Shown here: positions 18,346-36,744 of the stretch, one piece after another | Layout: every line of letters begins with the position of its first letter | How positions within the stretch are numbered: the stretch's first letter is position 1 | Assembly: GCA_038245295.1 (NCBI GenBank) | Contig: JBBRSP010000006.1 | Coordinates: 174,021-238,020, forward strand | Direction of reading: 5' to 3' | From: Candidatus Binatia bacterium | GTDB lineage: Bacteria; Desulfobacterota; Binatia; HRBIN30 | Length of the DNA: 64,000 nucleotides | Made by a program: the position numbers and the translations under genes | Notes under the pieces: generated by a model | Told to the model about the DNA's origin: nothing | Database searches by the model: none | The model's input: only the letters and a program-made list of their open reading frames with translations

Positions 18346-19386
18346 TTGAGCGCACTTCGTAAAGCGTTCTGGGGCAATCTCTCGAATCGGCAGCGGCCAG
18401 GGACTCTTGATGGTGATCGCATAGTCGGCAGTCCCGCATTGGCAACTGCCGCAAAGTCTCACCACCTGCCAAAAGATCAGCGCATAAAGCGATCTGTCGA
18501 GATCCAACGGTCCTTCTCACTGATCTCGCCTCGAGCGCCGAACCAGTCGAGTACCGTACTGATGAGATCCGCAGCGACAGTGGGCATCCATTGCACGACG
18601 ACGTCGAGCGTTTGCCGTAAGCGGATTCCGGATCAGCCCCTGCGTGAAAGGATCAGCGATCCTCGCTTCGCAGATTTTAACGAAGGCGCTAGGTGGGACT
18701 CGGTAGGAGGTGGCGTTTGCGTGGCAATGACTATTGAAGATGTCGAGCAACGTGCCGGTCGCGTTCTCAACGCGCAACTCCGAAACCCGAATCGCGATGT
18801 TCAGGACGCGATGTTTCGCGTGCTATGCGCCAGAGTCGTAAAATTTGGCAACGCTGCCAGCATGCTGCGATCAGCGGGATATGCTGAGCCAGCAATGGTA
18901 ATGTTGCGATGCATTTACGAGACCTATCTGTGGACTCGTTGGATTCTGATAGATCCGAAAAACGCGCAGCAATATTGGGATATCGGCAAGCGAGAAGCGG
19001 CCCGATTAACTGGAAAAATGGTTGGACAATACGAGATCAAGATCCGTGACTTTCCAAAGGACTCGCACGTACGCCAGGCCTATAGTGACCGCCAGGCGAA
19101 GAGTATCGACCTTCCTGATCCATCGCGCCTAGCTGCAACTGTGGGGGTGCAGCGCCTTCACGACGCCGTCTATCCGCTTCTCTCGTGGATGACACATGGG
19201 AACATTCTTTCGCTCGGCGAAGGCATGCTTGCGTCGACGAACGGCCAGTCTGTTCCGACGGGGGCAAGCGAGCTGAACGTCATGTTGTTCGACGTCATGG
19301 CGGCAAGAGTCGGTGAGGCATGCGTCGAAATCCTCGAGACCTGGTCCGAACGCCACGAGGTTGCACCGCCGTTCATTTGGAAATGA
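18346..19386 (+). CDS. Hypothetical protein. The true start is possibly the internal M near 18727.
   Basis: ORF only. No recognisable motif. Divergent from the PHP-ATPase gene. Confidence 0.3.
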   Translation: MSALRKAFWGNLSNRQRPGTLDGDRIVGSPALATAAKSHHLPKDQRIKRSVEIQRSFSLISPRAPNQSSTVLMRSAATVGIHCTTTSSVCRKRIPDQPLRERISDPRFADFNEGARWDSVGGGVCVAMTIEDVEQRAGRVLNAQLRNPNRDVQDAMFRVLCARVVKFGNAASMLRSAGYAEPAMVMLRCIYETYLWTRWILIDPKNAQQYWDIGKREAARLTGKMVGQYEIKIRDFPKDSHVRQAYSDRQAKSIDLPDPSRLAATVGVQRLHDAVYPLLSWMTHGNILSLGEGMLASTNGQSVPTGASELNVMLFDVMAARVGEACVEILETWSERHEVAPPFIWK

Positions 19387-22712: not shown

Positions 22713-22955
22713 TTGATGCGGAGAACATCGGGCTTTCTGGCGGTGCGTTTGGCGCGAGGGTTGGCAGGGTTTCGCGGCGACGCCTCGCAGAATCAGTTTG
22801 CCAAGAAACTTGGCATTTCAAATGCCTCGCTGAACCGGATCGAGAATCGCAGTCAGAACGTGTCCCTGAAAACTCTCGAGACGCTCTGCCGGCGTCTCAA
22901 CTGCGACATTGCCGATCTGTTTCCGTCGGAAGACCCGCCGAGAAGCACGCGATAG
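22713..22955 (+). CDS. XRE-family HTH regulator
   Basis: QNQFAKKLGISNASLNRIENRSQNVSLKTLETLCRRLNCDIADLF. Confidence 0.55.
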   Translation: MMRRTSGFLAVRLARGLAGFRGDASQNQFAKKLGISNASLNRIENRSQNVSLKTLETLCRRLNCDIADLFPSEDPPRSTR

Positions 22956-23210: not shown

Positions 23211-23407
23211 AATGCTCTCCTAGATTGAGCGGCACCGCTCCAGGCGGCCAAACTCTTTCCAATGGGATGCCAAATAGCACTTATGCAGTGTGTTGGCAAT
23301 CCATTTTGCATCGCAATGCAGTGCATATTGGCGCTTTGGCAATGCGACGCACTGTGGCCGACAGACCCCGATTCATTCCATCTTCAGGTTCCCCGGAGGT
23401 AGCCAGG

Positions 23408-23728
23408 ATGGACAACCGAGTGGCACTTGGCCTGCGAATCAAGGAGTTGCGAAAAGCGCGTTCGCTCTCTCAGGAAGCCTTGGCGGAGAAGATGGAGGTA
23501 CATCCCAAGTACCTCGGATCGGTCGAACGCGGCGAGCAGAATCCCACCATGGAGTTTCTCGAGAAAACAGCGCTTGCGCTTAGAGTCGACCTATCGGCGC
23601 TGTTCAATTGTCCCTGGCAGAGGATGAATGAGAGTGACCTCAAGAAGAAGCTCCACGCCCTTGTCGAAAAGTCGACCCTGGAGAGCCTTCGCGAAGTCTT
23701 AGCTATCCTGAAGTCGCGAGAGTTATAG
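23408..23728 (+). CDS. XRE-family HTH regulator
   Basis: Start MDNRVALG at 23408 with a GGAGGT RBS. LRKARSLSQEALAEKMEVHPKYLGSVERGEQNPTMEFLEKTALAL. Confidence 0.55.
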   Translation: MDNRVALGLRIKELRKARSLSQEALAEKMEVHPKYLGSVERGEQNPTMEFLEKTALALRVDLSALFNCPWQRMNESDLKKKLHALVEKSTLESLREVLAILKSREL

Positions 23729-23801: not shown

Positions 23802-24572
23802 TTGTTGCCTACCCCGCCATTGGTCGCGCGAGGCCGCTCCCGGAAGGCGTCTGCGTCAAGGGGTAACGAGGTGAATTCGGACGTCGACCCCGACCTTCAA
23901 CCGATCGAGTTGGCTGTCCGGCTGCTTCAGAATCGCTGGGCCGGAATCTTCGGCGCAGTTGCCGCCGTCCATCCAAGCGTACAATTCGATTGGGTGGACG
24001 AGGCCCGTGCGCAGGGTATGTCCCCGGTACGCAGAGCGGACTTTATTGGCGGACGACTCGCGGCGAGGCAGGCATTGGTTGCAGCTGGTTTGGTCGACGG
24101 AACCATCTCAGTTGATGATGACGGTGGCCCGATTTTCCCTCGCGGCTATACTGGCAGTATCGCGCATAAGCATGGTCGGGCGGTCGCCGTCGTGGGGCGA
24201 ACAGGGAGCTACGACGGCATCGGTGTTGACCTGGAGTATGATGAGGACCGTGATGAGGATAAGTTGGCGGCAGAGGTTGTCACCGCGTCGGAGGAGCGCC
24301 GGCTGCTGGACCTGCGCGCCGTCGAACCGATTCTCTCCTCGCCCGCGACACTGATTCTCGCCGCAAAGGAGGCCGTATACAAGGCCGCCTTCCCGATCAC
24401 CCGGAAGGACTTCTCGTTCGACGAGGTGGAACTGATCTTCGCGTCGGACTCCCGATCTTTTGATGCCGTTTGCTTTCCCGGTTACGAGCTGGTCTCCGTC
24501 TCTGGGTCGTACGAAATCGTGAGTCGGTGGATTGTGACGATAGCCGTCGCCCTCCCAGGTTCATACGTTTGA
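23802..24572 (+). CDS. 4'-phosphopantetheinyl transferase (Sfp/EntD type). The true start is possibly near 24018.
   Basis: Motifs GSIAHKHG, GIGVDLEY and AKEAVYKA (PPTase signatures). Confidence 0.55.
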   Translation: MLPTPPLVARGRSRKASASRGNEVNSDVDPDLQPIELAVRLLQNRWAGIFGAVAAVHPSVQFDWVDEARAQGMSPVRRADFIGGRLAARQALVAAGLVDGTISVDDDGGPIFPRGYTGSIAHKHGRAVAVVGRTGSYDGIGVDLEYDEDRDEDKLAAEVVTASEERRLLDLRAVEPILSSPATLILAAKEAVYKAAFPITRKDFSFDEVELIFASDSRSFDAVCFPGYELVSVSGSYEIVSRWIVTIAVALPGSYV

Positions 24573-24629
24573 CAATCAAACAAGTCTCTGCCATTATGTT
24601 CGACATTCGAACAGACGTGGAGGGCGCGA

Positions 24630-24989
24630 ATGTCGCTCAAATACACCCCGACGATCAACAAGCAAGAATTCGATGCAGTGGCGGAAGAACTGAGGAAGCG
24701 TTTGAAGCTCAGATACGAGATGTCGAAGAACGACGCGGATAAACCTCCGATCAACCCGGCAACGATGGGTGCCTTTGATCACCTGCCTGATCTCGATTCC
24801 AAGACTGTCGCGCGGTGGTCTTCCGACGTGCAGACATTTCTAGGTTGCAAGCTCAATCCTCGGTTAATCCGAAAGGGTGGGTACAATTCGTTTGATGATT
24901 TCTGGACAGACGTGTCTGCGAAGCTACGTGAGACGTGTTCTGAAGTCCGTAGCACGTTCACGTCAGAGCAAGCAGGAGCTGCACTATGA
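24630..24989 (+). CDS. Hypothetical small protein (119 aa), locally lower GC
   Basis: ORF whose stop overlaps the next HTH gene start (ATGA). Confidence 0.3.
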   Translation: MSLKYTPTINKQEFDAVAEELRKRLKLRYEMSKNDADKPPINPATMGAFDHLPDLDSKTVARWSSDVQTFLGCKLNPRLIRKGGYNSFDDFWTDVSAKLRETCSEVRSTFTSEQAGAAL

Positions 24990-25318
24990 GCGATGAGAAA
25001 CGCAAGAAATTGGCCGAACGCCTGCGAATGGCGCGCGAGGCGGCGAAACTCTCACAGGATGATGTTGCCCGAGAGCTCCTACTTCCTCGCCCGGCTATCT
25101 CACAGATCGAGAATGGGCATCGACGCGTGGAGGCGTTGGAACTGGCGCGCCTCGCGAAGCTTTATGGACGTCCCCTCGGCTTTTTTGCGGACGAAGAACC
25201 AATGGGTGCCGATGCGCTGTACCGCACTACGGCGGCCCTTTCGGAAAAGGATCGCGCCGAGGTGCTTCGATTCGCCGAGTTCCTTCGTCAAAAGGCCGAT
25301 GACACGGGGGAGCCGTGA
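24986..25318 (+). CDS. XRE-family HTH regulator (ImmR-like partner of the ImmA peptidase)
   Basis: LRMAREAAKLSQDDVARELLLPRPAISQIENGHRRVEALELARLAKLY. Immediately upstream of, and overlapping, the ImmA-like gene. Confidence 0.6.
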   Translation: MSDEKRKKLAERLRMAREAAKLSQDDVARELLLPRPAISQIENGHRRVEALELARLAKLYGRPLGFFADEEPMGADALYRTTAALSEKDRAEVLRFAEFLRQKADDTGEP

Positions 25319-26325
25319 TGGTCGAAGTTGTGCGAGAGGCGATTCTGCGTGGCATAGGCGGTGCTGCGGAGGCTCATGATGCTTTCAGGTTTCGGCAGCG
25401 CCATGAGGATGGCCTGCGTGCAATCGATGTCTTCGGCGTCATCGCGGAGCTAAAGCTCCCACTTGCGTTTCAGGCTCTCGACGAATTGTTGGGCGCGTGT
25501 ATCAGGGTGAGCAGCAGTGAAGTTGGAATCCTTGTCACTTCGCAACGTGATCTACACATGCAGCGTTTCACTGCGGCTCATGAGCTTGGGCACTTCGTCT
25601 TGGAGCATGAAGGCAGCCTAGACCGCGAGATCCGGTTGCCCGGCGATACGAAGGGGCGTGATCCGCGCGAGATCGAAGCCGACGCATTCGCCGCGGAATT
25701 CTTGATGCCCAAATGGCTCGTCAAAGCTGCGGCCCAGCGACGGCATTGGTGGGGTGACGACCTGTTGCGGATCCCGGAAGTCGTCTACCAACTCTCACTC
25801 CGACTTGCCGTCAGCTATGAGGCTACATGTTGGGGATTGGCTGCCCACGACTTTGTCCGACGTGATGTAGCAAGAGCCCTCACTGTCAAAAAACTGAAGG
25901 ACGTCAAGAAGAAGGTCCTTAGAGGTGTTCCGCTAGGCGACCCATGGGCCGACGTTTGGCAACTCGGTTCGGGAGACGATGGTGCTCAGCTCGACGCTGG
26001 CCCAAACGATCTCTTCGTCTTCGAACTCGCGGAAAGGGCCGCATCGGGATTCCGATGGGATGTGCAATCCGCAATCGATACGGGCTTCGCCCTTCTCGCC
26101 GACACGAGCGAGTTCGACGAGCGGGTGGTTGGTGGACAAAGCGAGCGGCGTTTGGTCCTCAGCGCGCCTCCGCCAGGCACTTATGAGCTTCACTTGCCGT
26201 TGCGGCGCTCCTTTGAGGCAACACCAGCCAACGGAACAGCGTTCAGTATCTCGATTTGTACGATCGGAACTCGACGCGACGAGTATCCGGCGGAGTTTTC
26301 TACGGCGGTAAGCACAGTGCACTAA
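25315..26325 (+). CDS. ImmA/IrrE-family Zn-metallopeptidase domain protein with an extra C-terminal domain
   Basis: HEXXH motif AAHELGHFVLEH and downstream EIEADAFAAEFLMP. The stop TAA overlaps the next ATG (TAATG). Confidence 0.6.
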   Translation: MMVEVVREAILRGIGGAAEAHDAFRFRQRHEDGLRAIDVFGVIAELKLPLAFQALDELLGACIRVSSSEVGILVTSQRDLHMQRFTAAHELGHFVLEHEGSLDREIRLPGDTKGRDPREIEADAFAAEFLMPKWLVKAAAQRRHWWGDDLLRIPEVVYQLSLRLAVSYEATCWGLAAHDFVRRDVARALTVKKLKDVKKKVLRGVPLGDPWADVWQLGSGDDGAQLDAGPNDLFVFELAERAASGFRWDVQSAIDTGFALLADTSEFDERVVGGQSERRLVLSAPPPGTYELHLPLRRSFEATPANGTAFSISICTIGTRRDEYPAEFSTAVSTVH

Positions 26326-26948
26326 TGGAAGTGATCCACGTGCTGCCTTCGGTTCGGGATCAGGGTGAGAGGGGAACTTGCCTCAGTATCGCAATGACCG
26401 ACGGACATCACGCGTCGCGCGCTGAGCCGCCCCCGCTGGCTGTCGACTTCCTGCATTTCAATGCGTCAACCCTCGCCGGGGTTGGTATCAATGATGCGGT
26501 CCCTGTGACCGCCGCGATGCTGGCACTCGAGGACGATGGCCAACCGATGGAGTCGGAGTGTCCATACTCCCCTATTGCGCTCCCAAGTACGTGGCTACCG
26601 CCGAAGACAATTGGCAAAATCTGGCGCCAGAAGACGGCCGTGCAATACAAGCATCCATGGGCGGTTATTGCAGCGCACGTCGGCATCGGCCAAGCGGCCG
26701 TCCTCGCGTTGAAAATCGACGACGCCTTTTGGAGCCCGGTGAATGGAGTCATTGATACCCCGATTGGTCCACCTCGGGCATTGCACGCCGTCCTCGCTGT
26801 AACCGCGGCCACTACTCCTCCGACTCGTGTTCTTGTGCGCAATAGCTGGGGTCCGAATTGGGGCGTCGGCGGTTACTCGTGGCTTTCCTCAGCATACGTG
26901 GCGGCATACTGTTTAGCGGTGATCACATTCCAAGGAGCGATTGAATGA
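26325..26948 (+). CDS. Papain-like (C1 family) cysteine peptidase, no pro-domain
   Basis: Cys motif DQGERGTCLSIAMT (compare QGxCGSCWAF). His/Asn region HAVLAV...VLVRNSWGPNWGVGGYSWL (compare NSWGxxWGExGY). Confidence 0.5.
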   Translation: MEVIHVLPSVRDQGERGTCLSIAMTDGHHASRAEPPPLAVDFLHFNASTLAGVGINDAVPVTAAMLALEDDGQPMESECPYSPIALPSTWLPPKTIGKIWRQKTAVQYKHPWAVIAAHVGIGQAAVLALKIDDAFWSPVNGVIDTPIGPPRALHAVLAVTAATTPPTRVLVRNSWGPNWGVGGYSWLSSAYVAAYCLAVITFQGAIE

Positions 26949-27745
26949 CACCAATAGTTCAGACGACCTGCGAACTCGCTTGGCTTGAGGCAGCCGAACA
27001 CCTTGCGCAGGTCAGCGACAATAGTGAGTACAACCTTGTCGTCGAAATCGCGAAGCCGACGTGGCATACGGCTGCAGACCTGCGCGTGCGCGCGACGGTC
27101 GACCAGTTTCTTCGTCGCCACAACACCCACCCGATCTCTACCGTGGCGGGCACTATATTTCCGGCGGCCGAGTACGTAAATCACGGCGTTCGTGGAGTGT
27201 ATGAATTCTACCCCGAGCAGGTATATCCCGCGATCAAGGAATCCACGGAATGGGGCCGATATGCGTACCGCCTGGTCCGCTGGGAGACTGCCTCGGGTAG
27301 AGTCATTAACCCTCTCGAGATCCTCATTGGGAAGATGAAGCAGCAACTCACGAATGGCAGACGCATGAGGGCGTGCTATGAGCTGTCCCTCGCGGATTCG
27401 GCGATTGACCTTCCGCTCTATGATCCGACTATTGATGCTCATCAAGCTCGTGGTGGTCCTTGCCTCTCCCATGTGAGTTTGAAGCTCGGCGCAGCGGACA
27501 CCCTCTACCTCACGGCGTTGTACCGCTCGCACTCGTACGTCGCGCGAGCGCTTGGGAATTTTCTTGGACTTGCAGATCTTCAAGCGTTCATCTGTGAACA
27601 GACGGGACTCTCCCCAGGACCGCTGATGAGCGTCTCGAGTTACTCCCGGCTTGAGACCGACGGCGGATGGTCGCGGGGGGAGGCGCTCCATCTCGTGAGG
27701 GATGCGCGCTCAGCATTCAACGGGGCAGTTCATGCGGCTGCGTGA
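26945..27745 (+). CDS. Thymidylate synthase / dCMP-dUMP hydroxymethylase-fold protein (divergent)
   Basis: GGPCLSHVSLKLGAADTLYLTALYRSHSYVARALGNFLGLADLQAF aligns by eye to E. coli ThyA [41 protein letters not shown]. The catalytic Cys is retained. The RSCD Asp is not conserved. Confidence 0.45.
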   Translation: MTPIVQTTCELAWLEAAEHLAQVSDNSEYNLVVEIAKPTWHTAADLRVRATVDQFLRRHNTHPISTVAGTIFPAAEYVNHGVRGVYEFYPEQVYPAIKESTEWGRYAYRLVRWETASGRVINPLEILIGKMKQQLTNGRRMRACYELSLADSAIDLPLYDPTIDAHQARGGPCLSHVSLKLGAADTLYLTALYRSHSYVARALGNFLGLADLQAFICEQTGLSPGPLMSVSSYSRLETDGGWSRGEALHLVRDARSAFNGAVHAAA

Positions 27746-28772
27746 ATACCAAGCGGCAGCCAAGAGCACCGATCAGTTCCCGAAAACGAAAGCGATCAAG
27801 GGGGCGAACAGCTCGCTTCAAAAGGCCGAACTGGTGCCACTCCTCGGCTTGACTGGCGAGATCGGTGCGTTGCTTTCCGAGTACAAGAAACTGCTTCGAG
27901 ATGGTCCCATTCATCTGCGGTTTTCTGATCGTCTCAAAGAGGAACTCGGCGACATCCTTTGGTATGTGGCGACTGTAGCGACAAAGTTCGATCTGCCCCT
28001 GGAGGAGATCGCTCGTCTGAACCTAAAGAAAGTGGCCGACCGATGGTCAAAGCCTCGACGCCGTGAGCCGTTGGACACATCCTACCCGCCCAACGAACGG
28101 CTGCCGCGAAGGTTTACGTACCGGTTCACCTACGAACATCGGAAGGACCTAACGCGGGGCGTTGCTGTCGTCGATCACGACGGCACGCGCATCGGCGACC
28201 TGCTTACGGACAACGCTCACGAGAACGATGGCTATCGATTTCACGACGTCATGCATTTCGCGTTCGTGGCGTTGCTTGGTTGGTCGCCTGTCGTACGCAA
28301 GCTTTTGCAGAGAAAACGCAAGAGCATCCGGAGCTCGGACGAAGTTGAGGACGGGGGGCGGGCAGGAGTCGTAGACGAAGCGATTGTGGCGATGGTGTTC
28401 GACTATATTCAGCATGACCTCGCTTCAACAACCGGAATGACCCGTATCGACTCCGATACTCTCCGCAGCATTCGCGCCCTTACCCGAGGGTTTGAAGTCA
28501 ACGTGCGAACCGAAGCGGAGTGGGAAGAGGCGATCCTGAAGGGCATCGAGGTATGGCGGCAGATCGAGGCTCACGATGGCGGAACAGTGGTCGGAGACTT
28601 TACGCGTCGCTCCTTCACGTTCAGTCCGAAGGGTGGACGAAGTCGAAGGAGATCTGCTCACGTCGCGAACCCCGTGCCGCGCCGTCGTAGGGCAAAGGAG
28701 CCCCGTTCAACTTCCACTTCGGTGGGTAGAACTGGGGTAGCGGATCGAGACTCGGCGAGAAGTTCTGTTTGA
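27732..28772 (+). CDS. MazG-like all-alpha NTP pyrophosphohydrolase domain protein with an unknown C-terminal domain
   Basis: Start MRLREYQ. Motifs LGLTGEIGALLSEYKK and EELGDILWYVA (EExGE / EELGDxLW MazG/HisE signatures). Confidence 0.55.
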   Translation: MRLREYQAAAKSTDQFPKTKAIKGANSSLQKAELVPLLGLTGEIGALLSEYKKLLRDGPIHLRFSDRLKEELGDILWYVATVATKFDLPLEEIARLNLKKVADRWSKPRRREPLDTSYPPNERLPRRFTYRFTYEHRKDLTRGVAVVDHDGTRIGDLLTDNAHENDGYRFHDVMHFAFVALLGWSPVVRKLLQRKRKSIRSSDEVEDGGRAGVVDEAIVAMVFDYIQHDLASTTGMTRIDSDTLRSIRALTRGFEVNVRTEAEWEEAILKGIEVWRQIEAHDGGTVVGDFTRRSFTFSPKGGRSRRRSAHVANPVPRRRRAKEPRSTSTSVGRTGVADRDSARSSV

Positions 28773-29898
28773 TGCGTGTTCGGCCCGAAATGCCGACGCA
28801 TTCGGGATGCGCCACACGGGCATATTTGCTCACCTCGCAAAAGAGATTCTGGTGATCAATTAGTTGTAAGGGGCGAATACCCCCCAGCTTGTCAAACTGG
28901 AGGCCCAGCCGATCAAATTCGACTTCGGCGATCGAAGCGACGTAGCCGATTATTTCGCTCTCGGCCATTCCGGAAGTGTTGCTGAAGCACTTCACAATTC
29001 CGTCGAGCGCACCAGGTCCTGGAACTACGAAATCCATTTCGGAAAAATCGGTTAGTTCGCTGTAGTTGACGTCAATCGCATACTGGAACGCGAGAAATGC
29101 ACCCAGCGATGGGTAGCTGCGGAGGATTGCAAAAACCTCCTCAAGAGACTTAGCCCTACCGACTCGACTTGGAGTACCGTCGCGCATCATTCGTTCAAGA
29201 AGCTGAAGATGATTGCGATGTTTCCGAGGACTGCCGAACGGAGGCGACGGCATGATGTACGCAGCAGAGTAAAGACGCTGACCCCGCGCATAGGCGGCGT
29301 CTAGGATCCGACCATATCTCTCCTCGTCGAAGCCGTACCACGCCGGAAGTTCTCCGAGTTGGTTGATCAGGAGCTCCCAAGTCCCGATGCGGTTAAAGAA
29401 TTTGAAAAGAAGAATTCGAAAGAAGACGTCATCCGCATGCTGAGACCCTTCGTAGATCACATGCCGAATCAGATACTGACTTACCCGATCCGATGCGCGG
29501 TAGGCATTTGTGAACCGGTGCGAAGCAATGATCGGATCGCTGCTCCACGGCAGCGACGCACCCTCAACGCGACGCATGAAGACTGCTTGTCGCTCGGCCG
29601 CAAAGCGCCAATAGGTATCAAAGACAGGCGTAGCTTCGACCGCCCGCCTGTAGGTTGCCTGAAGCAATCGTCCCAACCGAACACCCTCCTCCGTCCCCGA
29701 CGAGCGAAGCAAGGATATCCGCAGATGGCTTGGAGGTCCACCGCAAGACGTGGTGTTTTTGAGCTTCGCAGCAAAAGGTGCGAAGCGATCTGACGCGACG
29801 AAAGAACGAACCCGATCGGAGGGTCCGTTTTGTTTCGCGTCATTGCGCCTGGAATTTGACGAGGTCCGTTGCGCTTGTGCGTCGTTGCCGAGACACAT
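28621..29898 (-). CDS. Hypothetical protein (425 aa), convergent, low-GC
   Basis: Large ORF with about 50% GC over 28800-29500. No confident motif. Confidence 0.3.
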   Translation of the reverse strand: MCLGNDAQAQRTSSNSRRNDAKQNGPSDRVRSFVASDRFAPFAAKLKNTTSCGGPPSHLRISLLRSSGTEEGVRLGRLLQATYRRAVEATPVFDTYWRFAAERQAVFMRRVEGASLPWSSDPIIASHRFTNAYRASDRVSQYLIRHVIYEGSQHADDVFFRILLFKFFNRIGTWELLINQLGELPAWYGFDEERYGRILDAAYARGQRLYSAAYIMPSPPFGSPRKHRNHLQLLERMMRDGTPSRVGRAKSLEEVFAILRSYPSLGAFLAFQYAIDVNYSELTDFSEMDFVVPGPGALDGIVKCFSNTSGMAESEIIGYVASIAEVEFDRLGLQFDKLGGIRPLQLIDHQNLFCEVSKYARVAHPECVGISGRTRIKQNFSPSLDPLPQFYPPKWKLNGAPLPYDGAARGSRREQISFDFVHPSD

Positions 29899-30705: not shown

Positions 30706-33045
30706 CTATCGTCGAAGGAGTCGGTCGAGCCACGAGCGCCGATGTGGCGTAGCTTCGGACGGTTGTGACAACTCACCCCGGATTTGCCCCGGGCTTGGAG
30801 GGCTAGCACTCTTCGATACGACGACGCCGGGAGACCGATACGCCTCTGCTGGTGGAATCGGTTCCCCGCTTGCCCGGGCGATGGCCTGACCGTAGATCGA
30901 CCAAGCCGTTTCGACATCTTTCGACAGCGGTTCCGCAATCCTCCCGAAGCCCGAACGGCCAAATTGATCAACAGTTGGCGCCTGACCAAGTGCTTCCGAC
31001 AGCTGAAGGTACCACAATGACTCTTCGGCCAAGCGCTTGAGCTGATGGTTACGCTGTTGTGCTTCGACCTGCACCTTGGCTTCTTCGGGGTTTGCCACTA
31101 GGCTCCTTCGCTCGAACGGTTGTCCACCAAGCGCACAGAAAACCGACCACGTGAATCCGACGCGATCCGCCGGCATGATGGTCTCGCGTGTCGGCATTCG
31201 CGGGGCCTTCTCTCGGATGGTTGCATACAGCCCGCTGACGTCACCACCGAACCAATGGTTCGTGGCTCCCGCGCCGAATTTCATGAACTGCTTGAGAGTC
31301 GGAGGCTTTCCTCGATCCGCGAGCATACGATGGAATCGCTCTGCGGCACCTCGGATCTCCGTCTCCCAGCGGGCATGCAGGTAGCTATCAAGATACCCCT
31401 CGGCCCATGCGCGACGATGCTTGGTGATGATGTCGCGCAGGAACTCGAATCCTTCCCGCCGTGTACCACTGGAGGTCTGTATGCGTATTGAGACACCGGG
31501 GAATACCTCTGTTTTCGAGGATCGGTCGACGATCTCTTGTGGAGGCCCGAGCTTCGTCTCACCCAGACGGAGTTCTTCAAAAAGGTCCCTCGGTATTGGG
31601 CACTGAAGCTCCTGGAGGATGTCGACGTCCGCCGCATGGTACTGCGACAGACCTGCCATGTCGGTGCGCGAGGATGGACCCTCGCAAAGAAACCATGCTG
31701 TGAGAGCGCAGCCGTGCCAGACCCTGAGCGCGGCTCCAAAGGTCTGCGCCATGGCGGTATGCGGAAACGGCTCACTTACGACCCGATCTGGAAAGCGTTC
31801 TAAAACGGTCGTACCCCAGAGACGATCAATCTCCACGATAAGGTCTGCGGATAGGAAATCGCGGTAAAGGCCAGGCGTGTAGGGAGAACGCCACACGTCG
31901 TCAAACGTGATGAAGCCGCCCTCGTCGACAAGGCCCCAGAGTGACGGTTTCCCGGGGAGCTGCCGAGCATGCACCTCGTCGAACGCACTCCAGTACTTCC
32001 GCAGCGCAGCAACGCGTCGCTCAACCGGCGAAGACGTCCCAGTCTCCGCCCAGTAGGTGGAGAGGATATCTCGCACAGCGTCGGGAGAAACTCCCTGAGC
32101 CGCCGCGATTTCTTTCACCTGCCTCTTCGCCCTGACAAAGGGGCGAACTTTGGGGAGTGCCGTAATGATCTGCTCGTCCGGATGCGGTGGCTCGCCAATA
32201 TATTCGAGAAACGCCAACCAGCTCCCACCGAAGAACGCTGAAAGTAGGCGCTGGTACGGTTTGGTCAAAACCTGTTTCTTTTTTGGGGCGCCGTTGCGGG
32301 CGCTTTCGTAGTAACGCTGGACGAGTGTGACAAGAGCGGACGCTCGATAATGCTTGGCCTTGTCCACGCCAACCTGGTTTCCGAGCGCGCTCAAGAGCGC
32401 CCGCTTCACGTCCAGCTGCTCGGCAATCGCCATCGTGCTCCAATCGCGACCAGATCGCATCGGGCTGAGTTGATCCCCGACCTGGAAACCCATCGCACTC
32501 AGGTTCTCCGTCGCAGATGCCCACGCTCGTTGCGCGTCCTCCCGACTCATCGTGCCGGAACGATGTCCACGAAGAGCGAACACTTCGAACAAGCGCTCGA
32601 ACAAGGGTTCGAGCATTGCCCAGGAGAACACGGCGTCTGATGCAGTCTTGAAGATCACGCTCGCTTTCTCGGCGATTGTGGCTCCCCAGGCGAAGCGATC
32701 CTGCTGTCGGAAGTGAGCAGGAAAGTTCGCCATGCCGATTGAGACGCTTGCCCTCTCCGGGAAGTACCAGGCACCTTGAGAGTTCTGACCTTCAAGGCTG
32801 AAGACGCTATCCAGAAACTTCCGCTGCCGAGTGTCGAGGCCCGCGACACTCACGTCGTCGTTCCCGCGCGGACCGCCACGATGCGTAATGACCGTCTCAC
32901 CATGAAGTCCTCGCGCCAGCACGGTAGCAACAACCTCATCGATTTCTTCGAATACGATGCCAGCACGGTGCTCGACCTCGAGCGCCAATAGCTGCGATGG
33001 CTGAGCAAGAATCATTCGCCCAAAGGTGTCCAAGCGATCACTCAT
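30706..33045 (-). CDS. Hypothetical protein (779 aa), translationally coupled to the upstream DUF559-helicase
   Basis: Its start overlaps the helicase stop by 4 nt. No confident motif. Confidence 0.35.
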   Translation of the reverse strand: MSDRLDTFGRMILAQPSQLLALEVEHRAGIVFEEIDEVVATVLARGLHGETVITHRGGPRGNDDVSVAGLDTRQRKFLDSVFSLEGQNSQGAWYFPERASVSIGMANFPAHFRQQDRFAWGATIAEKASVIFKTASDAVFSWAMLEPLFERLFEVFALRGHRSGTMSREDAQRAWASATENLSAMGFQVGDQLSPMRSGRDWSTMAIAEQLDVKRALLSALGNQVGVDKAKHYRASALVTLVQRYYESARNGAPKKKQVLTKPYQRLLSAFFGGSWLAFLEYIGEPPHPDEQIITALPKVRPFVRAKRQVKEIAAAQGVSPDAVRDILSTYWAETGTSSPVERRVAALRKYWSAFDEVHARQLPGKPSLWGLVDEGGFITFDDVWRSPYTPGLYRDFLSADLIVEIDRLWGTTVLERFPDRVVSEPFPHTAMAQTFGAALRVWHGCALTAWFLCEGPSSRTDMAGLSQYHAADVDILQELQCPIPRDLFEELRLGETKLGPPQEIVDRSSKTEVFPGVSIRIQTSSGTRREGFEFLRDIITKHRRAWAEGYLDSYLHARWETEIRGAAERFHRMLADRGKPPTLKQFMKFGAGATNHWFGGDVSGLYATIREKAPRMPTRETIMPADRVGFTWSVFCALGGQPFERRSLVANPEEAKVQVEAQQRNHQLKRLAEESLWYLQLSEALGQAPTVDQFGRSGFGRIAEPLSKDVETAWSIYGQAIARASGEPIPPAEAYRSPGVVVSKSASPPSPGQIRGELSQPSEATPHRRSWLDRLLRR

Positions 33046-35123
33046 GAATCGAGTTCTTTGATGATCTCTAAGTATTGCTCGAACGTGACCGGCTCGGGCG
33101 AGTTTTGCGCATAGACTGCGTAACGCTGCGCAAGGGCTTCGCGTTCACGTTCTTGCCGGCGCTGCTCCACGCGTCGCTCGTCATGCACCAGTCGCTCTTC
33201 AACGGCCCCACGCTGGAAGACCACAAACGTTTCTGGGCGCCCCGCTGCGTCCTGCCCACGCGTACCCGGCAGGTCCTCCGTGGCGGACACACGACTCCAT
33301 TCGGGCGGAATTTCATGGCTCGTGAGTGGGTCCATGTCGTTCTCTCGGTAGATTGTATCGATATGCTCGTCGAGACCCAGTTCCGCATGGTAGATGACGT
33401 CGAGAAACTGCTGATGTCCATCGGTCCGACCCACAAGCGCAGGATGCGTCAGCACTCGTATTCCGCGGCCGACAAACTGATAGAATTCGCTGAAGCTGTT
33501 GTACGGCCGCATCGGGACGATGACGGTAACAGGGGGAAAGTCATATCCCTGCCCCAGCATGCGTAGCTGGACGATCCCTTGCAGGTCGCCGGACTCTTGC
33601 TCAAAACGATCCCGGATCGCTGTGATTCGAGCATCCGTCATCGAGTGGTGCAGATGGGCGCACGGTATCCCGTGCTCTTCGGCGATCCGAGCGATTTGTT
33701 CGGCGTGGCGTTCTCCCAGGGCAGAGAAAAGAACGCGAGGCTTGATGGGATAGAGGGCCGATGTCTGTGCGTCCAGCGCCCCTCGGACGGCGCGCATTAC
33801 TTGGCGGATTGGCTCGGTCGATTTCGCTGTGATGCGCGCAAGCTTCCGCTCGTCCTGGATGAGTTCGAGAATCGCATCCCTACCCGCAATCTCCTCGCGT
33901 GCTCCGTCGGGCCATACTAACTCGTAGGTTGTCTGGGTCGGGTCCGGCGCGAATCGATACACCCGAAGATTCTTGGCGTTTCCATCGGCGATCGCGTCGA
34001 TGAGCCGGTAGCGATACACAACATCGGCATCGATGGACTTCCCGTCTAGCCGCTGAAAACACGCGGACATGAGAAGTGTGCGTGCGCCGGCAAAATGACG
34101 AAACGTCCTCTGGTACGATTCGGCCGCTGCGATGTGCGCTTCGTCAATGACGATGAAATCGATGTCGTCCGGTCGCAACTTCATCAAGAGGTCGTCCGCG
34201 TCTCCGCCGGTTCCAAGAGAGTGGAAGTTCGTCACGACTACGTCGGCACCGAGAAGCTGCTCGCGCGTGACATCGCGGATCGCCGCTTCATCTCGATCGA
34301 GAACCCGTACCTTTGGGGGGGGAGTGCCCGGAATCAGTGGGCCACCCGGGAGCCCATATAGGACGTTGCCAACGGCGCTGTGATCGAACGCTTTGGCGAA
34401 CGTGCCGCGGATGACACTGCCGGGCGTTACGACCAGCGCGCGCTTCCGAGTGAAGGCCAATGATGCCACAACGGCCAAGGCGGTCTTGCCGGATCCAACC
34501 GACATTACGCAGGCTGCTCTGGTCCCACCGGAGCGCAGATAGTTTGCCAGCGCAACTACCGCCTCCCTCTGACAGCTGCGGAGGGTGCGCTGATTGAGCT
34601 TGTCGCGTACCTGGTCGAAGTAGGTCATGGGTGCGCCGTTTCTCGATAGTTCCCCATCCCACCCGAAGGGACGCAGCGCCTTGAGCCGATCTGGATCCAT
34701 CTCGGGCGTCTCCACGACCGGATCGCGAAGCAACAAGACTTGGAGTGCGGGATCTGTAGCGAGAATCGTTTGGAGTTGGGAAACGCATCGACCCGTCTCT
34801 CGACGAATCGAGTCGTACGAAAATCTGACAACGACCCTCCCAGAACCCTGGAGGTCGTTCTGTCGCATGCGGTCGTAGCTAAAAGCTGAACGATGTCCAT
34901 GAAACTCGAACCCGTCGAGCTCGATGATGAAGGTCTTCTCGTCGCCCTGGATTTCATAATCGACCCGATAGCACCGTGTGCCGATCTCCAGCTCTCGCTG
35001 CGGAACCACGCGGGCACGGATCTCCCGTCTAGCGGCAGGCGCGAGGACCCAACGCAGGAACGCGTACTCGAGGAATGAGCTTGCCGCGACGTCCTCATAA
35101 AGTTTCGCATCATCCGGCATCTT
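33042..35123 (-). CDS. SF2 DEAD/DEAH-box helicase with an N-terminal DUF559/Vsr-like PD-(D/E)xK endonuclease-like domain
   Basis: N-terminus VDYEIQGDEKTFIIELDGFEFHG...DRMRQNDLQGSGRVVVRF (DUF559). Helicase motif I VMSVGSGKT, motif II VIDEAH and motif VI QFVGRGIR. An alternative longer start is at 35204. Confidence 0.6.
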   Translation of the reverse strand, partial: KMPDDAKLYEDVAASSFLEYAFLRWVLAPAARREIRARVVPQRELEIGTRCYRVDYEIQGDEKTFIIELDGFEFHGHRSAFSYDRMRQNDLQGSGRVVVRFSYDSIRRETGRCVSQLQTILATDPALQVLLLRDPVVETPEMDPDRLKALRPFGWDGELSRNGAPMTYFDQVRDKLNQRTLRSCQREAVVALANYLRSGGTRAACVMSVGSGKTALAVVASLAFTRKRALVVTPGSVIRGTFAKAFDHSAVGNVLYGLPGGPLIPGTPPPKVRVLDRDEAAIRDVTREQLLGADVVVTNFHSLGTGGDADDLLMKLRPDDIDFIVIDEAHIAAAESYQRTFRHFAGARTLLMSACFQRLDGKSIDADVVYRYRLIDAIADGNAKNLRVYRFAPDPTQTTYELVWPDGAREEIAGRDAILELIQDERKLARITAKSTEPIRQVMRAVRGALDAQTSALYPIKPRVLFSALGERHAEQIARIAEEHGIPCAHLHHSMTDARITAIRDRFEQESGDLQGIVQLRMLGQGYDFPPVTVIVPMRPYNSFSEFYQFVGRGIRVLTHPALVGRTDGHQQFLDVIYHAELGLDEHIDTIYRENDMDPLTSHEIPPEWSRVSATEDLPGTRGQDAAGRPETFVVFQRGAVEERLVHDERRVEQRRQEREREALAQRYAVYAQNSPEPVTFEQYLEIIKELDS

Positions 35124-35712
35124 CGGACTCGATTTGGCGCAGCCGCTCCGTGATTTCCTCGCGTTCCTCGGATCCCTGACCAAGCCGTTCTGCAGCTTCC
35201 GCAACCTTTAAAGCCTCGCGAAGATACCCTTCGTTCTGGTAAAGCCGAAGCAGATGGGAGAACGACAGAATCCCGAACTGGCGCACCACACCGTCGGCTT
35301 CGTAGGATACGGCCTCCGGAAGGGATTCGGCGAGGCTAATGTCGAGCCAGCAAAGGCGTTCGACTTCTACAAGAACTGAGGGTTCCTCTATCCTTCGCTT
35401 CCAGAGCTGATCGGCGACACCTTGGATCGCGAAGTGGTATTCACTCCCCGTTCCGGGCAGTTCGAGAACCTCGGACAGATGTCGGAGTAGTCCGACGGTT
35501 GATGCTTCCGAAGAGGAGTGCTGCGAAGCTGGAGACGCTGATGTCTTCCCGTTGCCGGTGAGCAGTGGCCAGCTCAAAGATTCCTCACGTTTGCCTTCCA
35601 TATCGAAGACGTGACGCTCCGGAACGGCATTCTGCCCTGGAAGCCTCCCAGTACGTGTCCCTTGATAGGTCACACCGGGAATGTCAGCGAAGCGTTTGAA
35701 CCACTGAGGCAT
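35110..35712 (-). CDS. Hypothetical protein (200 aa)
   Basis: ORF upstream of, and overlapping, the helicase start region. Confidence 0.3.
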   Translation of the reverse strand: MPQWFKRFADIPGVTYQGTRTGRLPGQNAVPERHVFDMEGKREESLSWPLLTGNGKTSASPASQHSSSEASTVGLLRHLSEVLELPGTGSEYHFAIQGVADQLWKRRIEEPSVLVEVERLCWLDISLAESLPEAVSYEADGVVRQFGILSFSHLLRLYQNEGYLREALKVAEAAERLGQGSEEREEITERLRQIESEDAG

Positions 35713-35829
35713 GGTAGGCCATTATTCACACGTGCTTGGAAGGCGGCAAGCGCACGCGACCTTTTCATTTCGAGAGAAAGAAAAGAAGAGCCCGATCGGA
35801 GTGATCCGTCGGGCTCGTTTGTGGTTGCG

Positions 35830-36744
35830 TCACGGGGCTAGAACTTTGACCAAGGTCCGCTCGGCAAGAGCTTCGTCGCCAAGGCACACGGGCAGGTAGT
35901 CGCAGTAGCTGCACCAGCGGCCGGGACGACGATAGAATCGCTCGGCCGTGATTTCTTGAGCGACATATCCGGCCTTCGCGATGTATCGGGTGAGATCGGC
36001 CGGTTCACGGCGACTGAGGTGCCATTCGATTTTGGGTTGAGTCGTTTTCACGAGGACACAGAGCGCCGTTTGGGTCGCATCGGGCTCCGCGAGTTGATAC
36101 GCGGTCAGTTGATCGGACAACGCGGCTTCAAACGGGGGGTACGTTGTGGCTGAAGTCTTGAAGTCGAGGACGGTTCGTTGGCCGTCGACATCGGCGACGA
36201 GATCGATGATGCCAACAAGTTTGAGCGAGAGACTGGTCACCGTCACGGTAAACGGTCGTTCCACGGCCCTGACCGTCGTGATGCGGCCGACATCCGTGCG
36301 CGCGAACTGTTCCATGAGGGTGACGCCGATGGCGAGGAGCTTGTCCCAAGACTCGCGGTCTTTGTAGCGAACCGGAGCTTGTCGGATCGCGTTCCACTGC
36401 GTACGGAAGGTGACCACCGGATCCTCGCCGCCCCGAAACAACGCCTCGAGGGCAGCGTGCACGATCTTGCCGAACACCAAACTCGCGTCTGGCACCCGGC
36501 GCCGCAGATTCTCGTGATAATACAGCCGATATTGCTCGGGGCAGTGCAGATATCGGCTGACGCGCGAATGGGAGAGATGAGGCGCCTGTTTTGAAACGCC
36601 TCCATTCTGTGTCCGTTCTTGCTCTGGTGCGTCCACGGTCAATCCCTTCGCACGGCGCGAAGCGGAGGTGCTGAGAGCGGCGGGAGTACCTGAGCGACGT
36701 TGGTGTAGCGGCCATCCGGACTTGGCTGTGTCGTGACTCCACAA
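35830..36744 (-). CDS. Cas4/RecB-like PD-(D/E)xK nuclease with four Fe-S-type cysteines
   Basis: N-terminal HLSHSRVSRYLHCPEQYRLYY. C-terminal C-x2-C-x5-C (WCSYCDYLPVC). The position of the true N-terminus is uncertain. Confidence 0.5.
   Translation of the reverse strand: MWSHDTAKSGWPLHQRRSGTPAALSTSASRRAKGLTVDAPEQERTQNGGVSKQAPHLSHSRVSRYLHCPEQYRLYYHENLRRRVPDASLVFGKIVHAALEALFRGGEDPVVTFRTQWNAIRQAPVRYKDRESWDKLLAIGVTLMEQFARTDVGRITTVRAVERPFTVTVTSLSLKLVGIIDLVADVDGQRTVLDFKTSATTYPPFEAALSDQLTAYQLAEPDATQTALCVLVKTTQPKIEWHLSRREPADLTRYIAKAGYVAQEITAERFYRRPGRWCSYCDYLPVCLGDEALAERTLVKVLAP

Follow-up and report, generated by a model that had tools for sequence, protein, structure and literature searches.

The window analysed here, a 64,000-nucleotide stretch of the genome of a Candidatus Binatia bacterium (GenBank assembly GCA_038245295.1, contig JBBRSP010000006.1, positions 174,021 to 238,020 of the forward strand), contains an eight-gene cassette at 23802-29898 that is real, strongly conserved and horizontally mobile. 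The cassette is organised in two halves. Its constant front comprises, in many cases together with a 4'-phosphopantetheinyl transferase (PPTase), a carrier-like protein (orfA), an XRE-family helix-turn-helix (HTH) repressor, an M78-family Zn-peptidase joined to a chagasin-like inhibitor domain (M78-I42), a papain-family (C1) cysteine peptidase and a thymidylate synthase (TS)-like enzyme that belongs to no Pfam family. The back half is interchangeable: a nucleotide pyrophosphatase/kinase function, in the window that predicted for a MazG-MazG_C protein, is combined with a protein that would act on uracil derivatives in DNA, in the window HMUDK_hel. Judged by its gene content, coupling, operator, domain architecture, conservation and non-phage context, the cassette has about an even chance of being an inducible anti-phage or anti-invader system built on a modified pyrimidine. 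The nucleotide/DNA-modifying half and the repressor-peptidase gate of this system are of known kinds, whilst the pairing of carrier with PPTase, the TS-like enzyme that Pfam lacks and the putative inhibitor-protease lock are its unprecedented parts.

A preliminary description of this DNA, made from the sequence alone, had recognised five of the domains (XRE HTH, ImmA/IrrE-type Zn-peptidase, papain-like peptidase, TS-fold enzyme and MazG-like pyrophosphatase) within a run of six linked genes. All five assignments have since been borne out by profile or fold tests, that of the TS-like enzyme through AlphaFold2 (AF2) modelling and Foldseek. The inventory was nevertheless incomplete, as it had overlooked the carrier-like orfA, the PPTase, the chagasin-like domain, MazG_C, the convergent HMUDK_hel gene, the operator and the kinship to defence systems of the DS-4 type.

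Conservation and distribution of the cassette

From an alignment of TS-like homologues, 80 genomic loci anchored on the TS-like gene were collected, and the presence of each gene in them was counted by tblastn and all-against-all clustering of open reading frames (ORFs). The carrier-like gene is found in 76 of the 80 loci, the C1 peptidase gene in 73-75, the M78-I42 gene in 73-74 and the XRE gene in 72-73, followed by the genes for MazG-MazG_C (63 loci) and HMUDK_hel (61 loci). A PPTase of the Sfp type is encoded in 48 loci and one of the AcpS type in 10 others, giving 58 in total. The preliminary description had proposed a search for neighbourhood conservation as a check against chance juxtaposition, and these frequencies speak against chance. 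All eight genes occur together in 33 of the 62 loci that extend for at least 4 kb on each side, and minimal loci retain the carrier-like gene immediately 5' of the TS-like gene, along with HMUDK_hel.

More than 15 bacterial phyla, as well as archaea, are represented among these loci and the matches on plasmids. The hosts of the 80 loci include members of the Myxococcota, Acidobacteriota, Alpha-, Beta- and Gammaproteobacteria, Verrucomicrobiota, Actinomycetota, Planctomycetota, Nitrospirota, Bacteroidota, Chloroflexota and others, in addition to one Thermoplasmata archaeon, and with identities of 22-71% across phyla the loci do not stem from one recent clone. Independent gene calls give the identical gene order in two additional contigs. 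In a copy on a Bradyrhizobium plasmid, the RefSeq names read, in order, acpS, hypothetical, HTH, 'protease inhibitor I42 family protein', 'C1 family peptidase', hypothetical, uracil-DNA glycosylase, NTP pyrophosphohydrolase and dCTP deaminase. The TS-like family itself is rare yet widespread, being represented at E<=1e-3 by 1,439 cluster representatives among 1.84 billion, or approximately 1,400 clusters at 50% identity.

Translational coupling and a predicted paired operator

Six plus-strand ORFs lie within 24630-28772, and their translational coupling, which the preliminary description had noted, is confirmed by junctions that can be read directly from the DNA: an ATGA overlap between orfA and XRE, GTGA (or TGATG) between XRE and M78, TAATG between M78 and C1, ATGA between C1 and the TS-like gene and, given a MazG start at 27732, a 14-nt overlap between the TS-like and MazG genes. 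The HMUDK_hel gene is convergent to this operon, the MazG and HMUDK_hel ORFs overlapping by 152 nt at 28621-28772; an overlap of a similar type is seen in one other locus (L001).

The 57-nt gap 5' of orfA harbours a promoter-like site close to the consensus, TTGACA-17-CATTAT, which has a TG extension and lies at 24569-24597 (10/12 in a promoter scan). Superimposed on it, within 24568..24611 (+), the palindrome TTYGA-N3-TCGAA occurs twice, 31 bp apart, such that the first copy (O1, 24568-24580) overlaps the -35 element and the second (O2, 24599-24611) directly follows the -10 element on its 3' side. A palindrome with at most one mismatch is found at the same place in 43 of 72 loci, against an expectation of 0.013 per region; its copies are spaced by 31 bp in 24 loci and by 30-32 bp in 32, and the pair is kept across phyla. 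Across the 64-kb window the motif is not enriched (15 matches compared with 10.4 expected), although O2 is its sole perfect match, so that the significance of the pair derives from its position and its conservation across genomes. This arrangement fits the operator expected of a dimeric XRE repressor, and the pair is predicted to serve as such. Its placement would make the genes from orfA through MazG the regulated unit, with the PPTase and HMUDK_hel genes outside it.

A thymidylate synthase-fold enzyme outside the ThyA family

The protein encoded at 26945..27745 (+) matches no Pfam family, including PF00303, the family of canonical thymidylate synthases, and a profile of its family recovered no TS when compared with the PDB sequences. 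The NCBIfam model for archaeal thymidylate synthase, TIGR03283, gave an E-value of 1.5e-11, which is below its cut-off. Since placement by sequence had failed, structure prediction was required. An AF2 model built with 22 homologues (pLDDT 87, pTM 0.88) gave 396 Foldseek matches at E<=1e-3, and all of the 50 listed belong to the TS superfamily, amongst them thymidylate synthases, the CMP hydroxymethylase MilA and the flavin-dependent dCMP hydroxylase AfhB.

For the mapping of motifs only, the protein was aligned by hhalign with single ThyA and DS-4 TS sequences, for which the probabilities were low. With the roles of the ThyA residues taken from PMC13326640, the nucleophile C146 corresponds to C173 of the window protein, the invariant Cys of a GPCL motif, the phosphate-binding R166 to R194 and N177, which selects uracil over cytosine, to N205; all three are kept, the latter two being likewise invariant. 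Two other positions are lost: L143, which excludes water, is replaced by Gly, and D169, which contacts the folate, by S197 (in an RSHS motif) or, in most homologues, by Tyr. A changed D169 is the mark of the switch that the 5-hydroxy-dCMP synthases have made to flavin as cofactor (PMC13326640).

Taken together, these features identify the protein as a member of the TS/pyrimidine hydroxymethylase superfamily, with which it shares the fold and the Cys, Arg and Asn residues; unlike ThyA, it lacks the folate Asp and any match to PF00303, and it is not a member of the ThyA family. The earlier suggestion that it is a non-canonical TS, based on a retained Cys and a missing Asp, is thereby upheld and extended to the retained uracil-specifying Asn and the lost water-excluding Leu. 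With its active site open and the folate Asp gone, the enzyme probably activates C5 of a uracil nucleotide but yields something other than a methyl substituent, and it may do so without the usual use of folate.

A carrier-like protein and its phosphopantetheinyl transferase

The first gene of the operon, orfA (24630..24989, +), encodes a divergent acyl/peptidyl-carrier-like protein of 119 aa, with a candidate phosphopantetheine attachment site at Ser57 in an LDSK motif. Foldseek returned nothing significant for its model, and a Pfam scan of 23 family members gave no match, to PP-binding or otherwise. The assignment as a carrier depends, as a consequence, on weaker but concordant evidence. In the family alignment an invariant Asp-Ser pair (D56, S57) is followed by a pattern like that of peptidyl carrier proteins (PCPs); the only four PDB chains recovered by the family profile (E 0.35-0.69) are all acyl carrier proteins (ACPs), aligned on their phosphopantetheine Ser; and in the model (pLDDT 77) a helix begins at residue 57, with Ser57 at its N-terminus. 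The best structural and profile matches include, besides ACPs, the PP-binding domain of ALDH1L1. In this enzyme, a 10-formyltetrahydrofolate dehydrogenase, the phosphopantetheine arm bears a folate-derived one-carbon unit.

Upstream of orfA, an Sfp-type PPTase with conserved motifs is encoded at 23802..24572 (+; 4PPT_N 7.6e-17, ACPS 1.9e-8), the start codon of which is uncertain. The PPTases of the cassette are of two types, Sfp and AcpS, and occupy differing positions; one locus (L066) has an additional Sfp-like copy in yet another, third position. This recurrence of a PPTase in two types and several positions provides strong contextual support for orfA as a carrier protein, and we infer, by analogy with type II carrier proteins served by a dedicated PPTase, that orfA is phosphopantetheinylated. 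The likeness to such ACPs and PCPs lies in the Asp-Ser at a helix N-terminus, the PCP-like pattern and the presence of an Sfp or AcpS PPTase in the cassette; the differences are that here there is no significant match to Pfam PP-binding, no loading enzyme in the cassette, and a set of partners that modify nucleotides or DNA.

A predicted repressor-peptidase switch coupled to a cysteine peptidase

The next two genes resemble known derepressible switches. The XRE-family repressor (24986..25318, +; HTH_3 8.8e-13) is matched over its full length by the PADLOC model capH (6.8e-10), and the M78 (ImmA/IrrE/CapP-like) protein (25315..26325, +; Peptidase_M78 6.9e-16) by capP (1.6e-19). The peptidase part of the latter spans residues ~1-200 and contains an invariant HELGH motif (H89, E90, H93); its profile recovers IrrE (2e-8) and CapP (1.4e-6) from the PDB. 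An XRE HTH adjoining an M78 Zn-peptidase, with a palindromic operator over the promoter, is the arrangement of the CapH/CapP, ImmR/ImmA and DdrO/IrrE pairs, and the gate of this type that the preliminary description had recognised is thus substantiated by the PADLOC matches and the conserved dual operator. ImmR/ImmA pairs govern the induction of integrative and conjugative elements (ICEs) and prophages, whilst CapH/CapP-like gating is typical of immune operons (bioRxiv 10.1101/2022.04.27.489752; 10.64898/2026.05.16.725639).

CapP and IrrE sense single-stranded DNA (ssDNA) in a groove that lies between their peptidase domain and the GAF domain at the C-terminus (bioRxiv 10.1101/2022.04.27.489752; 10.64898/2026.05.16.725639). 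The present proteins differ in that the position of the GAF domain is taken, in 34 of 35 M78 orthologues, by a domain of the chagasin/ICP (I42) family of protease inhibitors, and in that a C1 peptidase gene follows. In the window this domain covers residues ~210-315 (nt ~25942-26259) and matches Inhibitor_I42 at 1.4e-5, its 25.8 bits lying just below the Pfam cut-off of 27.2; the I42 model matches the same 34 of 35 orthologues, the best at 1.4e-10, and one orthologue is named 'protease inhibitor I42 family protein' in RefSeq. Solved inhibitors are recovered by the family profile of the M78-I42 protein, namely amoebiasin-2 (7e-12), the ICP of P. aeruginosa (4e-8) and chagasin (1.4e-5). The inhibitory loops of chagasin and the ICPs carry the motifs NPTTG[YF]xW, GxGG and RPW, of which the family consensus retains GYxW and RPW. 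To our knowledge, ICPs are otherwise free-standing proteins, whereas here the domain is part of a cytoplasmic metallopeptidase and is encoded in one operon with its presumed target.

This presumed target is a papain-family (C1A) peptidase encoded at 26325..26948 (+), which is matched by Peptidase_C1 with 26.2 bits (cut-off 20.7) and whose family profile matches 178 solved C1A peptidases in the PDB, the best at 7e-22. The catalytic Gln, Cys, His and Asn residues (Q13, C19, H154, N173) are intact and at least 90% conserved. In contrast to typical members of the C1A family, it lacks both a zymogen propeptide and a signal peptide, beginning ~10 residues before the start of the mature-domain alignment, and, in a subfamily of 612 members, all of the 120 listed are 208-234 aa long. 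These observations sustain the earlier reading of the gene as a papain-like protease without a pro-domain, and the peptidase is, on its sequence, cytoplasmic. Translation of a chagasin-like domain just 5' of such an enzyme would explain how a pro-less papain-like protease is tolerated.

The chagasin-like domain and the C1 peptidase can accordingly be presumed to form an inhibitor-protease pair, in which the former would hold the latter inactive, as chagasin-type inhibitors do for their targets. Replacement of the GAF domain also implies that the input signal is probably sensed otherwise than in CapP and IrrE, and the architecture points to a switch whose state is tied to the C1 peptidase, either instead of ssDNA or in addition to it. 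Within such a switch the C1 peptidase may act as input, lock or output.

The interchangeable back half

The last gene of the operon (27732..28772, +) encodes an all-alpha NTP pyrophosphohydrolase of the MazG type (9.4e-5) followed by a MazG_C domain (7e-64). The MazG part resembles the house-cleaning pyrophosphatases YpjD and DCTPP1 and has conserved acidic motifs; the tail of the protein, where its gene overlaps that of HMUDK_hel, is rich in Arg and Ser and is not conserved. MazG_C is a predicted nucleotide kinase (DeWeirdt et al., PMC13092281).

On the opposite strand, at 28621..29898 (-), lies the gene for a 425-aa protein of the HMUDK_hel family (5.9e-108), similar to clade 1 of the aGPT-Pplases. 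Since conservation is lacking over the first ~90 codons, the true start may be further downstream. The protein is not a P-loop kinase; the literature ascribes to HMUDK_hel a DNA-glycosylase-like helical fold, and no relative was found by sequence in the PDB. Among phage records, 506 match HMUDK_hel, including those of ViI-like, M6-like and SP-10 phages, where the orthologues are the paralogues annotated aGPT-Pplase1, which adjoin the 5-hydroxymethyldeoxyuridine (5-hmdU) DNA kinase. A Cys354-Glu355 pair is conserved in the family, and its Cys aligns with a Cys of both phage aGPT-Pplase1 and 2. In clade 2, a conserved Cys and the neighbouring Glu are essential for the transfer of an amino acid to 5-phosphomethyl-dU in DNA, a reaction that proceeds by way of an adduct at C6 and an exocyclic methylene at C5, and in which a thiol (beta-mercaptoethanol) is accepted as the nucleophile (PMC8989533).

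Gene fusions and replacements link the functions of the back half. One locus (L004, 11485-13713, -) encodes a 742-aa HMUDK_hel-MazG-MazG_C fusion, and another, which lacks MazG (L041, 10756-12621, +), a 621-aa fusion of Thymidylate_kin with HMUDK_hel; the functions of HMUDK_hel, MazG-MazG_C and thymidylate kinase would thereby appear to be connected. In six MazG-less loci (L007, L008, L021, L038, L058 and L066), a PF00303 TS, a P-loop dNMP kinase and HMUDK_hel stand beside the TS-like gene. L066 additionally carries a TylF-like methyltransferase. In 10-11 loci, HMUDK_hel is replaced by a uracil-DNA glycosylase (UDG)-like protein of ~225 aa that is weakly family-4-like, the two being mutually exclusive (UDG variants: L051, L059, L064, L068, L069, L071, L073, L075, L077, L080 and L081). 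The hosts of this variant are Sphingomonas, Lysobacterales, Pseudomonas and Bradyrhizobium, and MazG-MazG_C is encoded on the opposite strand. A dCTP-deaminase-like accessory gene is present in 13 loci.

Two unusual ORFs were also observed. An uninterrupted 1,724-aa ORF in L045 (11839-17013, -) is an apparent fusion of an MmeI-like type IIL restriction-modification (RM) enzyme (Eco57I, MmeI_Mtase, MmeI_TRD) with HMUDK_hel, and a 674-aa metagenome protein (P0229) runs from M78-I42 through TS-like to MazG-MazG_C without C1, which makes it a product of deletion or else a chimera created in assembly.

Relationship to known systems

The closest tested relative of the cassette is DS-4 ('NTTI'), a validated system that protects Escherichia coli against phages and which is composed of a TS, an adenylate-kinase-like dNMP kinase, HMUDK_hel, a TIR protein and Nmad2 (DeWeirdt, Mahoney & Laub 2026, PMC13092281). 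In both, HMUDK_hel occurs alongside an enzyme of the TS fold and a nucleotide-kinase function, in the window the one predicted for MazG_C, and the six MazG-less loci described above carry the DS-4 triad of PF00303 TS, P-loop dNMP kinase and HMUDK_hel. Of these components, however, only HMUDK_hel is shared by the window, where the TS-like enzyme is not of PF00303 and MazG-MazG_C stands in place of the P-loop kinase. No TIR or Nmad2 gene was seen in scans of the window and the flanks, and the window adds the carrier protein, PPTase, XRE, M78-chagasin protein and C1 peptidase.

The same report presents predicted, unvalidated systems (fig. S12B and C) that consist of MazG, MazG-C, NMAD and UDG, or of MazG-C together with dUTPase and aGPT-Pplase (PMC13092281). 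These resemble the back half in combining MazG-MazG_C with an HMUDK_hel/aGPT-Pplase-like or UDG-like protein, often beside a gene of the dCTP-deaminase/dUTPase fold; they differ in that, as far as the text and legends name their parts, no carrier, PPTase, C1 peptidase, chagasin domain or TS-like gene is among them.

A third comparison is with thymidine hypermodification in the phages M6, ViI, PaMx11, SP10 and PhiW-14, in which a dUMP hydroxymethylase provides a base that is incorporated into DNA, phosphorylated by a P-loop 5-hmdU DNA kinase and passed to the aGPT-Pplase2 amino-acid:DNA transferase (PMC5889632, PMC8989533). Here, too, a TS-fold enzyme is paired with a protein of the aGPT-Pplase superfamily containing a conserved Cys, and the chemistry would likewise run through a C6 thiolate adduct and a C5 exocyclic methylene. 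Unlike the phage pathways, the cassette is cellular, borne on plasmids or islands and predicted to be repressor-gated; its HMUDK_hel is clade-1-like, and a P-loop DNA kinase is missing from the window, as are pyridoxal phosphate-dependent, radical-SAM or flavin tailoring enzymes.

The carrier protein, the chagasin-M78 fusion and the C1 peptidase are undescribed for such systems in the searchable literature, in agreement with the preliminary description as regards the C1 peptidase, although Iyer et al. 2013 and Burroughs et al. 2015 may depict parts of the arrangement. Likewise, nothing relevant on anti-phage systems that involve chagasin, carrier proteins or PPTases was found in the literature searched.

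A model for the cassette

Of the two functions first envisaged for this DNA, a derepressible system of nucleotide depletion or modification acting by abortive infection is the better, and the following model develops it. In the resting state, an XRE dimer would occupy the two palindromes over the -35 element and the transcription start and so repress the operon that encodes the carrier protein, XRE, M78/chagasin, the C1 peptidase, the TS-like enzyme and MazG/MazG_C. Following a trigger, the M78 peptidase would cleave the repressor, as is expected by homology to CapH/CapP, ImmR/ImmA and DdrO/IrrE; the inhibitor-protease pair would either relay this trigger to the switch or hold the C1 peptidase silent until the M78 protein has been consumed. 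MazG would then convert dNTPs to dNMPs, thereby providing dUMP and clearing the competing nucleotide, and Cys173 of the TS-like enzyme would attack C6 of the uracil nucleotide and build a one-carbon substituent at C5. The product would be re-phosphorylated by MazG_C, or by a thymidylate-kinase-type enzyme in other loci, and incorporated into replicating DNA, where HMUDK_hel, or the UDG-like protein in the variant, would act on the modified base. By analogy with their relatives, Cys-dependent chemistry at C5 of uracil may be common to the TS-like enzyme and HMUDK_hel. The end result would be replicating phage DNA that is damaged or blocked, the anti-phage role being suggested by the context.

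The likeliest extra reactant in this scheme would be the phosphopantetheine thiol of the carrier, which could either capture the C5 exocyclic methylene expected to arise with both Cys enzymes, forming a thioether adduct, or carry the one-carbon unit. Thiol trapping in TS mutants and the phosphopantetheine arm of ALDH1L1 offer precedents. A chemical precedent for thiol capture is also given by the acceptance of beta-mercaptoethanol in the clade 2 reaction (PMC8989533). In its most specific form, the proposal is one of carrier-dependent alkylation, with the phosphopantetheine thiol becoming thioether-linked to the C5-methylene of deoxyuridine, the adduct blocking phage replication and the whole being armed by the chagasin-CapP-like switch; this version is speculative and, as it stands, rather unlikely. 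In this version the intermediate would come from the TS-like enzyme, acting on the nucleotide, or from HMUDK_hel, acting in DNA, and the adduct would be a protein-nucleotide or a protein-DNA conjugate.

A number of observations weigh against an anti-phage system of this kind. A canonical TS is present besides the TS-like gene in some loci, which makes it improbable that the TS-like enzyme is just a dUMP hydroxymethylase. MazG_C has no P-loop, its role as a kinase being a published prediction only, and HMUDK_hel resembles the clade-1 aGPT-Pplase paralogues of phages, which were dispensable in vitro (PMC8989533). An adenylation or acyltransferase enzyme to load the carrier is absent from the cassette, the chagasin-like domain of the window deviates at two inhibitor-loop motifs (SGFRW and RSF), and no PADLOC model covers the core genes of the cassette. 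Furthermore, the frequent plasmid or ICE setting fits a role in self-modification of mobile DNA, considered in the next section, equally well. That role is the main rival to the model; the second is a tethered small-molecule pathway.

In the latter, the carrier protein, PPTase, TS-like enzyme, MazG-MazG_C and C1-fold enzyme would assemble a modified nucleotide or nucleoside on the carrier, as a toxin, an antibiotic-like compound or a second messenger, DNA would stay unmodified, and the papain-fold protein would serve as a carrier transferase or thioesterase. Tethered biosynthesis is typically recognised by a carrier protein that has its own PPTase, the fold matches of the TS-like enzyme include MilA and such TS-fold enzymes start nucleoside-antibiotic pathways, and papain-fold acyltransferases that act on ACP thioesters exist (BtrH). 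The TIR effector beside the same core in DS-4 could, moreover, mean that a nucleotide product is sensed. Set against this, enzymes for adenylation or condensation and a ketosynthase are missing from the cassette, the C1 protein has the typical features of a C1A peptidase and is accompanied by a peptidase inhibitor, both HMUDK_hel and its UDG-like substitute come from DNA-acting superfamilies, and a CapH/CapP-like gate is typical of immune operons. A pathway of this nature is consequently improbable, and defence through a modified pyrimidine is the preferred account.

Genomic setting: islands, plasmids and phages

The surroundings of the cassette are heterogeneous, with integrases, transposases, coupling proteins of type IV secretion systems (T4SS), TrbI and scattered defence genes; neighbours in individual loci include a Shedu nuclease, an MmeI-like RM enzyme, a HigB toxin-antitoxin pair and integrases. 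Of the 23 plasmid matches of the TS-like family, 13 are conjugative plasmids, and one is from Haloarcula. In the window, the region ~7000-52000 has a GC content of 0.53-0.60, as opposed to 0.62-0.70 at both ends, and this ~45-kb tract is probably a mobile or defence island. Besides the cassette it encodes an AAA_21/SMC-like (ABC/SMC-like) ATPase (15273-18260), a DUF5677 protein (18346-19386), a TrwB-like coupling ATPase (37685-38950), an rve integrase (45169-46290) and a SIR2-TPR protein (48066-50129).

Such a setting is the basis of the main rival, a self-modification (anti-restriction or epigenetic) module with which a conjugative plasmid or integrative element, its enzymes turned on at induction by the ImmR/ImmA-like switch, would replace or decorate its own thymidine and thus survive restriction in the next host. 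This explanation gains from the conjugative nature of over half of the plasmids, the recurrence of T4SS coupling proteins, TrbI and integrases in the flanks, the TrwB-like ATPase and rve integrase of the window, the use of ImmR/ImmA pairs in the induction of ICEs and prophages, and the homology of the enzymes to those of phage hypermodification, which protect from restriction. Yet some copies of the cassette lie in chromosomal islands beside defence genes with no transfer genes nearby, and the closest tested relative, DS-4, is defensive. Nor does self-modification give a reason for the protease-inhibitor lock or the carrier protein, and a UDG-like alternative to HMUDK_hel suits an attack on modified DNA better than its protection. 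On balance, self-modification has perhaps one chance in five, and a defensive function is again favoured.

A prophage-derived base-hypermodification module, the other function first envisaged for this DNA, is not upheld. Both this origin, as leftovers of phage thymidine hypermodification, and a chance neighbourhood of unrelated genes could draw on the 506 phage homologues of HMUDK_hel and the low-GC island in which the cassette lies. For the TS-like family, in contrast, 50,697 phage records yielded no match, the 25 most recurrent flank families listed include none for phage structure, and the gene order, overlapping junctions and operator are kept in dozens of distant genomes. The absence of the TS-like family from these phage records, together with the setting on conjugative plasmids and integrase-flanked islands, makes a prophage origin unlikely, and these explanations as a whole are very improbable in comparison with a system of cellular, mobile defence.

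Several nearby genes of the window were assessed as possible further parts. Downstream, the minus strand at 30706-37535 encodes a 779-aa familyless protein, a 720-aa DUF559/MTES_1575 nuclease-ResIII helicase that matches PADLOC mREase_IV (4e-15), a 200-aa ORF, a PD-(D/E)XK nuclease and a 298-aa ORF, a run that looks like a separate restriction or defence module. The nuclease-helicase is found in 1 of the 80 loci and the 779-aa, PD-(D/E)XK and 298-aa proteins in none, and the first, second and fourth of these genes were rejected as parts of the cassette. Two XRE-type HTH ORFs upstream of the PPTase, at 23225-23728 (+) and 22713-22955 (+), were excluded on the same grounds (2 and 0 of the 80 loci, respectively) and are probably unrelated regulators. 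Amongst the flanking ORFs of loci L001-L050, the PADLOC model mad8 matches 5 of 95, a count equal to those of dCTP-deaminase-like and second-TS genes.

Implications

If the proposed function is correct, the cassette would represent a widespread immune system, present in more than 15 phyla, in archaea and on plasmids, in which the thymidine hypermodification chemistry of phages has been turned against invaders. Three of its elements would be new to defence biology: a phosphopantetheinylated carrier, a cytoplasmic papain-type protease under the control of a chagasin-type inhibitor, and a CapP-like switch with a swapped sensor. Two protein families without Pfam models, the TS-like enzyme and the carrier-like protein, are defined by this analysis, and the precise operator sequence makes the regulation directly testable. 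The cassette also opens a route to the activity of the clade-1 aGPT-Pplase/HMUDK_hel proteins and of MazG_C, and offers a hint as to why systems of the DS-4 type work. Finally, enzymes that join groups or proteins to a defined DNA base, if such they are, would be useful tools.

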